UHGV virus genome: UHGV-0287696 | Direction: 5' to 3' (one strand) | From: a virus | Length of the DNA stretch: 64,000 nucleotides | Shown here: piece by piece, positions 35,721 to 36,734 of the stretch | Position numbering within the stretch: the first letter of the stretch is position 1 | Layout: each line of letters begins with the position of its first letter | Notes under the pieces: generated by a model | Databases searched by the model: none | The model's input: only the letters and a program-made list of their open reading frames with translations | Told to the model about the DNA's origin: nothing | Made by a program: the position numbers and the translations under genes

Positions 35721-35927
35721 TTACCTTCCCCCCGCACCTTTACTACAGCTACCACTACACGACCAGCTACATCCGCCGTTACAGTTATAATGGCTTAAAG
35801 GTAAACCGGCAAGGTTATTGGTTGAAGACACAGTGCCCTGGTTTGCAATATAGTTGTTTGCGTTAGCGGTCGTAATATACCCTTCCGCTGTTACTAACCG
35901 ATCACGAAGGTTCTTAAGGCTAATCAC
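35721..35927 (-). CDS. Cys-rich repeat peptide C (short paralog)
   Basis: ORF track frame 35721..35957 starts at TTG inside the upstream gene; GTG at 35927 with GGGAGG upstream; SLKNLRDRL leader then HYNCNGGCSWSCSGSCSK core. Confidence 0.6.
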   Translation of the reverse strand: MISLKNLRDRLVTAEGYITTANANNYIANQGTVSSTNNLAGLPLSHYNCNGGCSWSCSGSCSKGAGGR

Positions 35928-35929
35928 AA

Positions 35930-36328
35930 TTACCTCCCAGAACACCCGCCAGAACAACTACCTGAGCAGCCTGCAGAACAGTTTCCTACACACGAGTTAG
36001 AACAACTCCCCGTACAGCTTCCTGAACAGCCACCAGAACAGGTATTCGAACATCCACTACAGCCTGCACTACAACCTGATACACAGTTTGCAGAACACGA
36101 AGAACCACAGCCGCCTGATGCGTTCCCTGTACAACCACCAGAACAGCTCGAACAGGTCCAGCTACAGCTCCCACCACAGTCGTAGTGGTTGCGAGCTTGC
36201 CCACCGAATAGGTCTGCGTTGTTCGTCGCTTTCCCACGAATATAGTTTTGTACTGCACCCGTATTCTTCAATGCAGTGTTGTCAATGTTATTTAGCCGCG
36301 CTTGTAGCGCAGGTAATCCAATTGCCAT
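35930..36328 (-). CDS. Cys-rich repeat peptide B
   Basis: 132 aa; about 50-aa leader then about 80-aa core with Cys at period 4 (CSGGCSGSCTGSCSNSCVGNCSAGCSGSCSGGCSG); conserved junction HYDCGGSCSWTCS; GAGGTG Shine-Dalgarno. Confidence 0.75.
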   Translation of the reverse strand: MAIGLPALQARLNNIDNTALKNTGAVQNYIRGKATNNADLFGGQARNHYDCGGSCSWTCSSCSGGCTGNASGGCGSSCSANCVSGCSAGCSGCSNTCSGGCSGSCTGSCSNSCVGNCSAGCSGSCSGGCSGR

Positions 36329-36338
36329 TTTTCACCTC

Positions 36339-36734
36339 TTAGGTTGGGCCAGAACAGCCACCAGAGCAAGCACCAGAACAACCCGTAGAACAACGGCCCG
36401 AGCAAGCACCCCCACAGGTCCCACTGCAACCTGAACAGCCACCGGAACACGTTGAACTACATCCAGTACACTGGTTACCGCACGCAGAGGAGCAGCTACC
36501 TACACACACTGACGTACAGGTGCCCGAACAACTCGTACAGCCATGCGTACAACCGTTTGAGCACGTCCAGCTGCAACTCCCCCCGCAGTCTAACCGACTT
36601 GGCGTCCAACCCGAAAAAGTGTCGGCGGCATTATGTGCTTTCGACGCAACTTGCGGATCAACACGTGGGCCAGTTGCCATTTGGTTCTCTACGTTGGTGA
36701 TTCGGTCACGTACATTTTTAACACTGATCGCCAT
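36339..36734 (-). CDS. Cys-rich repeat peptide A
   Basis: ORF track frame to 36737 (GTG); adjacent ATG at 36734 with AAGGA upstream; leader ISVKNVRDRITNVENQ...; junction RLDCGGSCSWTCS; Cys-rich core of about 80 aa. Confidence 0.75.
   Translation of the reverse strand: MAISVKNVRDRITNVENQMATGPRVDPQVASKAHNAADTFSGWTPSRLDCGGSCSWTCSNGCTHGCTSCSGTCTSVCVGSCSSACGNQCTGCSSTCSGGCSGCSGTCGGACSGRCSTGCSGACSGGCSGPT

Follow-up and report, generated by a model that had tools for sequence, protein, structure and literature searches.

Why would a large phage keep, next to the genes of its tail fibres, three short proteins rich in evenly spaced cysteines together with two enzymes of the radical S-adenosylmethionine (SAM) class? 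The question is raised by positions 35,721 to 36,734 of a 64,000-nucleotide stretch of the virus genome UHGV-0287696 (the window), an interval bounded on the minus strand by the stop codon of a 68-residue gene (C) and the start codon of a 131-residue gene (A), with a third gene (B) between them. The window shares about 70% nucleotide identity with Salmonella phage SPN3US and with Erwinia jumbo phages and is identical to no record in the phage collection; judged by this similarity, it is a new SPN3US-like jumbo phage. We propose that A, B and C are substrates of the radical SAM cassette encoded downstream of them and that, instead of being secreted as free peptides, they serve as a structural module associated with the tail fibre, a reading to which we give a probability of roughly 0.6. 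The proposal is built on the observed anatomy of the genes, the periodicity of their cysteines, the conservation of both, the co-occurrence of enzyme and substrate, and the fusion of the repeat to fibres. The enzymology would resemble that of peptides that ribosomes synthesize and that are modified after translation (RiPPs), but its product appears to be a structural protein module, an unexpected biological context for this variant of the CXXX-repeat radical SAM systems.

Three Paralogous Proteins with a Four-Residue Cysteine Period

The initial annotation, made by a model from the letters, described A and B as peptides of 131–132 residues and C as one of 68, each opening with a region of roughly 50 residues that is free of cysteine. 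The open reading frames (ORFs) and their Shine-Dalgarno sequences bear out the lengths, and the Cys-free N-terminal domains, which lead into the junction with the Cys-rich core, measure 48–50 residues in A, B and C. An element KN(V/L)RDR(I/L) said to be common to these domains is found in A and C but not in B, which reads PALQARL (B orthologs, KDIQNRL). All three proteins match a single phage family, phrog_6085, with expectation values (E) of 1.6e-40 for A, 4.7e-38 for B and 2.5e-24 for C. B also matches the NCBIfam Cys-rich repeat model TIGR04114, marginally, at 20.4 bits against a cut-off of 20, and A and C gave no match in that scan at E 0.01 or better. A Pfam scan of the three proteins returned nothing at E 0.1 or better, and a sequence search of the PDB returned noise only (E > 0.3).

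The four-residue cysteine period reported from the letters is confirmed by the gap counts. In A, 17 of the 20 gaps between cysteines are of four residues and three are of three; in B, 16 of the 19 are of four, two of three and one of eight, the last corresponding to a Cys-to-Ala position present in all eight B orthologs displayed; and in C, with its four cysteines, every gap is of four residues. No shuffle reached the counts of A and B, since 100,000 composition-preserving shuffles of each core gave at most 12 (A) and 10 (B) four-residue gaps. The cysteine totals had been given as more than 20 in A and B and four in C, which is right for A (21) and C, while B has exactly 20. The X positions of the cores are mainly Ser, Gly and Thr, and there is no Asp or Glu in the cores of A, B or C.

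Ser, Gly and Cys codons are mixed in the A and B cores, and Tandem Repeats Finder detects only 2–2.8 imperfect copies of 12 nucleotides, which argues that the period is maintained at the protein level and does not reflect a recent DNA repeat. On the same grounds a plain DNA tandem repeat was ruled out. Three other candidate explanations of the repeat were rejected: haem binding, because there is no CxxCH motif; a collagen-like repeat, for which the initial annotation had seen no Gly-X-Y period; and a metallothionein-like protein, because there are no cysteine gaps of one or two residues (no CxC or CC) and no Pfam match.

Comparison of the three proteins also confirmed the common junction that had been pointed out between N-terminal domain and core. 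It reads RLDCGGSCSWTCS in A, HYDCGGSCSWTCS in B and HYNCNGGCSWSCS in C, with the consensus (R/H)(L/Y)(D/N)-C-(G/N)-G-(S/G)-C-S-W-(T/S)-C-S and the core pattern C-x3-C-S-W-x-C. The B protein of SPN3US has CSFSC where the window has CSWTC, indicating that the junction Trp is not universal.

Conservation and Rarity

Homologs of A, B and C were found in 60 phage records and in metagenomes. The triplet is present in all 12 SPN3US-like loci fetched, and two distant loci from a large phage (L002/L003), whose enzymes are 24–50% identical, likewise encode two long paralogs and one short one. In four orthologs compared, which span down to 64–70% identity in the neighbouring genes, all 21 cysteines of A and all 20 of B are invariant and the X positions drift; the Cys-to-Ala position of B is kept as well. 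L019 is the window's closest relative, with an rSAM-1 that is 93% identical; between the two, 18 of 31 X positions are changed in the distal half of the B core and 1 of 31 in the proximal half. The L019 locus is mosaic in general, and we therefore make no claim of diversifying selection.

The module is rare. A profile of the N-terminal domain (hereafter "leader") plus junction, run against 1.84 billion representative sequences, recovered only 30 clusters. Two long profile matches, P0200 and P0204, were discarded as spurious, being low-complexity matches to Gly/Asp-rich repeats of the GGxGxD type. The reference record of SPN3US (JN641803) lacks two of the three genes, the homologs of A and C, which lie at 8213–8605 and 7576–7782 in locus L001, and the annotated start of its B homolog, gp166 (L001, 7794–8129), is about 24 codons late.

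Two Radical SAM Enzymes Accompany the Repeats

Both radical SAM genes lie 1–3 kb downstream of A, B and C in the same operon. The larger enzyme, rSAM-1, has a CX3CX2C motif at residues 21–28 (C21, C25, C28) and SPASM-like C-terminal cysteines (C278, C286, C296, C340, C343, C349, C352, C377), all conserved across 12 homologs. Its best NCBIfam matches are PapB (NF047865; 116.8 bits, cut-off 340) and TIGR04115, the radical SAM maturase family with a "CXXX-repeat target" (114.7 bits, cut-off 350), of which it covers profile positions 3–345 of 359, and its closest solved relative by sequence is CteB (5WGG, E 5.8e-14), a thioether-forming maturase of SCIFF peptides. The smaller, twitch-like enzyme, rSAM-2, contains the cluster motif CNLDCSFC and a short C-terminal region with three aligned cysteines, two of them present at 90% or more; its closest solved relative by sequence is the sactisynthase SkfB (6EFN, E 3e-6), and orthologs occur in 21 loci, the window included.

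The association of repeat and enzyme extends well beyond the window. We obtained 80 viral loci by searching viral contigs with an alignment of rSAM-1 homologs, and counted as a Cxxx-repeat ORF any with at least six cysteines in Cx(2-4) register within 3.5 kb of the enzyme. A same-strand Cxxx-repeat ORF accompanies the rSAM-1 relative in 76 of the 80, a count that includes near-identical contigs, so that the independent observations number fewer than 76. In 1.2 Mb, 93 of 96 Cxxx-repeat ORFs are on the strand of the enzyme, at a median distance of 980 bp, and no other Cxxx-repeat ORF is found elsewhere in the 64-kb window. In the reverse check, all three distant Cxxx proteins whose contigs were looked up adjoin radical SAM genes. 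The linkage to radical SAM genes suggested by the initial annotation thus holds both in the operon and across these loci, and the outcome it had set against its own idea, homologs that are ordinary metallothionein- or keratin-like repeats with no such linkage, did not occur.

The loci fall into two classes. Class I comprises the window, the SPN3US-like phages, L002/L003, L006–L008 and L020–L022, and combines a leader and CSW-type junction with an accessory protein of 250–320 residues and two radical SAM enzymes. Orthologous cassettes of this kind are found in the large phage of L002/L003, with gene order kept, in a P2-like prophage of Campylobacter pinnipediorum (L006) and in a Deferribacter prophage (L008); a 190-residue protein is co-conserved in the jumbo-phage version. 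L019 has a third cassette radical SAM gene, an extra 303-residue paralog of rSAM-2 at 4576–5487, between A and B, which suggests that the small radical SAM enzymes are substrate specific. Class II accounts for most remaining loci (L004/L005, L023–L088), apparently mostly gut phages, to judge from sample names and our own reading. Class II contigs encode Cxxx proteins of 150–940 residues with up to 73 cysteines, several of them near baseplate, fibre or lysis genes, and those inspected have a single radical SAM enzyme; the class II proteins displayed have a different N-terminal domain, F..LK..V..E..RR..GSV..Y....YDY. When seven class II enzymes were scored against TIGR04115, four passed (378–455 bits) and three fell below (217.6–341.4 bits), which implies that this database-defined family is partly phage-borne.

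Fusion of the Repeat to Tail Fibres

The clearest indication that these are not ordinary RiPP precursors comes from loci in which the module forms part of a fibre or fibre-like protein, beginning with the bacterial matches of rSAM-1. In the Campylobacter prophage, both enzymes and the accessory gene directly follow the gene for a 384-residue tail fibre, which matches the tail-collar family PF12571 at 138.8 bits as well as many tail-fibre PHROGs and has the Cxxx C-terminus GCNGCSGSCSGSCSSGCTACSGCSGSCSG. The accessory gene lies between this fibre gene and a tail sheath gene, a slot occupied in P2 by the chaperone for fibre assembly. In the Deferribacter prophage, a 302-residue protein ends in NADQLGGQAGSYYRCSDCSWTCSS plus about 28 Cxxx units and is followed by the three cassette genes; the genes upstream have GpJ-type and Phage-tail_3 Pfam matches, and the H-D-x-R-Y-Y-T-E repeats of the protein itself give a weak match, below cut-off, to a Pfam "phage tail repeat". 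In a 213-kb phage (L020), a 568-residue protein encoded behind a baseplate wedge gene ends in leader, junction and Cxxx units, and 28–30 units follow the junction in this and the Deferribacter protein. Baseplate wedge genes also lie just upstream in L035, and the Cxxx protein of L085 has a tail-protein N-terminus.

The leader-plus-junction profile matches residues 154–209 of the 302-residue protein and 407–465 of the 568-residue protein, so that the "leader" is an internal domain of fibre or fibre-like proteins. This bears on the earlier suggestion that the junction is a leader-core boundary or a recognition site. A role in recognition or modification is plausible, because the short paralogs (C, and those of L002/L003) keep only the junction; a cleavable leader of an exported RiPP is unsupported. 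A metagenomic C-type protein of 210 residues, P0181, runs past the junction (…CSWACSGSCSKGAGGG) into a C-terminal domain of about 145 residues, which could place a cysteine knot in the middle of a two-domain protein, although this is a single sequence and may be a read-through artefact.

The window has the same setting in unfused form. A, B and C lie in the tail-fibre/baseplate module, directly downstream of the counterparts of SPN3US gp167–170, near the 3' end of a long minus-strand operon and between its fibre genes and a terminator-like hairpin (Table 1). SPN3US gp167 has been found in virions (PMC5694885, Suppl. Table 1), and gp168–170 are virion proteins described as "baseplate/tail fiber candidate" (PMC5694885; PMC5105663).

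Comparison with Other Radical SAM Systems

By its logic the cassette would be a CXXX-repeat radical SAM system, yet its score falls short of TIGR04115 membership. The TIGR04114/TIGR04115 system (Pfam PF27846, tSAM_targ_Cxxx_rpt), defined bioinformatically, likewise pairs a protein with a long tandem Cxxx stretch with a neighbouring radical SAM/SPASM enzyme; rSAM-1 aligns with almost the whole of TIGR04115, B attains the TIGR04114 cut-off, and the CX3CX2C and SPASM cysteines are present. On the other hand, the score of rSAM-1 (114.7 vs 350 bits) and its 24–28% identity to true members suggest a sister subfamily. The window cassette differs further in its second radical SAM enzyme, its 295-residue accessory protein and its 190-residue protein, and its substrates differ in having a distinct domain of about 50 residues and a CSW junction and in occurring as three paralogs, two long and one short. 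By these comparisons it is a more elaborate sister of the TIGR04115 family. We found no experimental study of the TIGR04114/TIGR04115 system in the literature.

Among characterized enzymes, PapB gives rSAM-1 its best family score. PapB, the subject of work by Hudson et al. 2019 and Precord et al. 2019, reportedly makes six thioethers from Cys sulfur to the Asp β-carbon in tandem CX3D repeats of PapA, yielding the ranthipeptide freyrasin. As in that system, the window substrates are tandem short repeats with one cysteine per unit, and rSAM-1 lacks a long N-terminal extension ahead of its radical SAM core. The differences are substantial: rSAM-1 scores 116.8 bits against a cut-off of 340, the repeats have no conserved Asp/Glu acceptor (no CX3(D/E)), there are about 20 units instead of six, and the product is apparently part of a fibre protein and not a small peptide.

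CteB and SkfB, the closest solved structures to rSAM-1 and rSAM-2, both install Cys thioethers. Only the radical SAM core aligns, however, and the substrates are unrelated; rSAM-1 lacks the N-terminal recognition domain of about 100 residues of CteB, the match beginning at CteB residue 105 and query residue 19. SCIFF itself is a six-Cys peptide of about 45 residues, compared with 68–132 residues and 4–21 cysteines here, and rSAM-1 scores 59.5 bits against the model TIGR03974, whose cut-off is 425. QhpD is a radical SAM/SPASM enzyme that forms several Cys thioethers in QhpC, a retained structural subunit of quinohemoprotein amine dehydrogenase. It thus provides a protein-embedded case, and rSAM-1 matches its model, TIGR03906, at 61 bits; the homology is distant (cut-off 453), and QhpC is no repeat protein but one small subunit of an enzyme, with Asp/Glu acceptors.

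The bioinformatically defined His-Xaa-Ser system (HxsB/HxsC, with the repeat protein HxsD) also combines two radical SAM enzymes with a short tandem-repeat substrate, and rSAM-1 matches HxsB at 75 bits and rSAM-2 matches HxsC at 39 bits. These scores are far under the cut-offs of 370 and 268, the repeat is H-x-S, and there is no phage or fibre context. By analogy, the mechanism would most resemble that of PapB/freyrasin and, as a protein-embedded case, that of QhpD/QhpC, with the His-Xaa-Ser system as an architectural analogue.

With the fibre tips and chaperones of myoviruses (P2 H/G, T4 gp37/gp38) the module has in common the Cxxx stretch at the distal C-terminus of the fibre (L006, L008, L020), an accessory gene that directly follows the fibre gene, and variable residues on an invariant scaffold. 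We know of no fibre tip made of cysteine repeats or matured by radical SAM enzymes. Full-text literature searches returned no description of this cassette or of radical SAM-matured Cys-repeat fibre proteins; a cyanophage paper merely lists a radical SAM maturase as an "antibiotic synthesis gene."

Alternative Readings

Several results weigh against a fibre-associated, radical SAM-modified module. When the leaders of A, B and C were compared with every ORF of the window, they matched neither the large fibre proteins nor any protein besides A, B and C, and thus point to no attachment partner. In the accessory protein, neither a RiPP-recognition fold nor a chaperone fold was recognizable, and it showed no detectable similarity to known chaperones; its structure model comes from an alignment-based AlphaFold run, the single-sequence run having reached a predicted local distance difference test score of only 34. 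A minimal cassette in a 279-kb phage contig (L022, 6883–10074), in which a 97-residue protein ending in RGCESCAMGCHGPQ precedes the accessory gene and both radical SAM genes, has only three cysteines in its putative substrate and adjoins a 909-residue gene, with no obvious fibre genes. The thioether argument draws on relatives that are 24–40% identical and on family scores far below cut-off (114.7 vs 350), and the redundancy among the 80 loci reduces the weight of their count. Finally, virion mass spectrometry of SPN3US detected gp167–173 but not gp166 (PMC5694885, Suppl. Table 1). This absence counts for little, because the A and C homologs were unannotated, trypsin yields only about three usable peptides from B, and cores that are cross-linked would not be identified; the cores of A, B and C contain no tryptic sites.

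One alternative is that A, B and C are precursors of classical RiPPs, in which the leader of about 50 residues is removed after radical SAM modification and the Cys-rich cores, once freed, are bioactive peptides that might, for instance, act against bacteria, counter defence or manipulate the host. The locus has the look of such a system: short ORFs adjoin radical SAM/SPASM maturases related to PapB, TIGR04115 and CteB, and a conserved boundary motif (L-x-G-G, S-G or A-G) stands shortly before the first cysteine, which we take to resemble a double-glycine cleavage site. The L022 cassette, without an obvious fibre module, and the failure to detect gp166 in SPN3US virions (PMC5694885) would also agree with it. 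We nevertheless consider this alternative unlikely, because the "leader" is internal in the 302- and 568-residue fibre or fibre-like proteins, a PF12571 tail fibre ends in a Cxxx domain, and A, B and C belong to a single late operon, in which virion fibre genes lie on one side of them and a tail-like gene on the other. The five genes that follow A, B and C, scanned with Pfam, NCBIfam and PHROG, revealed no protease, peptidase or transporter, nor do the gene tables of L002–L008 contain a peptidase or transporter, and the homolog P0181 continues for about 145 residues beyond the junction.

Alternatively, the array might bind metal or an Fe-S cluster, for instance on a trimer axis, or be rich in disulfides, with the radical SAM enzymes making some other modification or acting on another target. 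The fibre tips of myoviruses are known to carry metal on their axis, as in T4 gp37 (His-x-His iron), R-pyocin and P2-type fibres, a precedent that counts for this alternative, as do the invariant cysteines among variable small residues and the location at the fibre tip; the present data, moreover, show no particular bonded atoms. We judge it improbable all the same. The tight and ancient co-inheritance of the repeat with radical SAM/SPASM enzymes (76 of 80 loci) points to the repeat itself as the enzyme substrate, the nearest characterized relatives of both enzymes make Cys thioethers, and neither metallothionein-type CxC/CC motifs nor a Pfam metallothionein match is present.

That the genes are an artefact of low-complexity DNA, non-coding or spurious frames, a thought invited by the many overlapping ORFs that do exist, as had been noted, on the other strand and in other frames, is effectively refuted by the strong Shine-Dalgarno sequences of all three, the homologs in phage records and metagenomes with kept cysteines and drifting synonymous codons, the existence of a PHROG family for A, B and C, and the fact that the Cys frame is the only conserved one.

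A Possible Route to a Cross-Linked Fibre Module

Our preferred reading, a radical SAM-modified module of the tail fibre, can be cast as a sequence of steps whose parts differ in strength. That A, B and C are substrates of the radical SAM enzymes is very probable; a structural role in the fibre, with the inferred incorporation into the virion, is probable to a lesser degree; and thioether chemistry on the Cxxx array, argued by analogy with the enzymes' relatives, stands at about even odds. The 3' end of the baseplate-fibre operon would give rise to the three proteins late in infection, and their N-terminal domain of about 50 residues and C-x3-C-S-W-x-C junction would be what the accessory protein and both enzymes recognize and dock to. 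On the analogy of PapB and CteB, rSAM-1 would then work along the roughly 20 Cxxx units, abstracting a hydrogen from a neighbouring residue's carbon and joining that carbon to the Cys sulfur, to leave a ladder of small thioether rings. A further, SkfB-like cross-link may be added by rSAM-2, possibly at the junction, as suggested by the short paralogs that keep only the junction and by the extra rSAM-2 copy between A and B in L019.

The product would be a rigid rod, insensitive to redox conditions and proteases, that assembles and attaches to the large fibres. Assembly might take the form of a trimer, with two long chains to one short, a possibility raised by the recurrence of two long paralogs and one short in two distant phage groups. 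In other phages the module is fused straight to the C-terminal fibre tip. In its fullest form, this scheme predicts thioether rings in an unbroken ladder along a (Cxxx)n rod at the distal end of the tail fibre, which the rod forms or caps; in the jumbo phages the rod would be a heterotrimer in its own right, again with two long chains to one short. We offer this version tentatively and at somewhat less than even odds. Judged from the sequences recovered, the module appears to range over jumbo myoviruses and two prophages, one P2-like and the other with a long gene of the central-tail-fibre type, with a related one-enzyme form in many gut-phage contigs.

If the proposal is correct, radical peptide cross-linking, so far studied in small secreted natural products, would also be a tool by which viruses harden or shape their host-recognition apparatus; in its fullest version, it would provide the first example of a virion structural element built through RiPP-type radical cross-linking. 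Phage tail fibres would then be the first biological setting for the uncharacterized TIGR04114/TIGR04115 family, and fibre assembly would gain a post-translational layer. The proposal could also account for the two radical SAM genes, hitherto unexplained, of SPN3US-like phages for therapy and biocontrol that infect Salmonella, Erwinia and Escherichia coli. For phage engineering, it would mean that assembly of such fibres depends on the enzymes, SAM, Fe-S clusters and a reducing environment. SPN3US, with its amber-mutant genetics and published virion proteomics, is a tractable model.

Operon and Neighbouring Genes

The coordinates of the operon are collected in Table 1. The 401-residue protein and the three giant fibre candidates have in common a phrog_2163 N-terminal region, which is probably, from this sequence similarity, a common attachment domain. 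That three giant paralogs stand beside three small Cys-repeat paralogs may be meaningful or may be no more than a coincidence of number. The spacer between gene C and the accessory gene contains no terminator-like site and, in a search for an attenuator or terminator, no unusual RNA fold (z = 0.34), which argues for read-through into the enzyme genes. At the far end, the 223-residue protein has weak similarity to tail proteins (phrog_1807, tail fibre, E 2.4e-4; phrog_2837, tail protein, E 8.6e-4), and the hairpin closes the minus-strand fibre and cassette operon where plus-strand genes meet it.

Table 1. Features of the fibre and cassette operon, with positions in the window
Feature	Position	Strand	Length	Remarks
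Gene A	36339..36734	minus	131 residues	ATG start behind a Shine-Dalgarno sequence; 49-residue Cys-free N-terminal domain, then junction DCGGSCSWTCS; 21 Cys in total
Gene B	35930..36328	minus	132 residues	ATG start behind a Shine-Dalgarno sequence; SPN3US gp166 homolog; 20 Cys and one conserved Cys-to-Ala position
Gene C	35721..35927	minus	68 residues	Short paralog; GTG start 5-6 nucleotides past GGGAGG; N-terminal domain as in A and B, junction NCNGGCSWSCSGSC, only 4 Cys, C-terminal GAGGR
Coiled-coil virion protein	36802..38007	minus	401 residues	Directly upstream of A; SPN3US gp167 homolog, 78% identical; phrog_2163 (virion structural protein), E 8.6e-104
Three large paralogous fibre/baseplate proteins	38042..51858	minus		PHROG virion structural families; upstream, same orientation
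First large paralog	38042-43225	minus	1727 residues	41% identical to SPN3US gp168
Second large paralog	43320-47525	minus	1401 residues	With the third, placed as gp169/gp170 by synteny and paralogy only
Third large paralog	47536-51858	minus	1440 residues	With the second, placed as gp169/gp170 by synteny and paralogy only
Spacer, gene C to accessory gene	35572..35720	minus	149 nucleotides	
Accessory protein	34684..35571	minus	295 residues	phrog_8030; SPN3US gp165 homolog; conserved cassette member
rSAM-2	33739..34662	minus	307 residues	SPN3US gp164 homolog; Pfam Radical_SAM, 53 bits
rSAM-1	32433..33755	minus	440 residues	Radical SAM/SPASM; SPN3US gp163 homolog
190-residue protein	31898..32470	minus	190 residues	phrog_7988; homologous to a 172-residue L002 protein; 15 loci including the window
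223-residue protein	31251..31922	minus	223 residues	phrog_8169; final operon gene
Bidirectional terminator-like hairpin	31197..31227			GC-rich 12-13-bp stem, T runs on both strands

Two observations concern sequences farther afield. In L002/L003, a gene for an anti-defence protein of the Acb2/Tad1-hairpin type lies just upstream of the cassette (7600–7821), and one for a Cpn60/GroEL-like chaperonin lies downstream (14895 onward). In the window itself, the first 25 kb have no close match in the phage collection apart from about 480 bp at 14499–14983, within a 1532-residue ORF (10992–15590), that are 85–88% identical to Yersinia phage vB_YpM_39 and E. coli phage CMS-2020a; from this pattern of identity, the segment is likely an exchanged module in a large protein.

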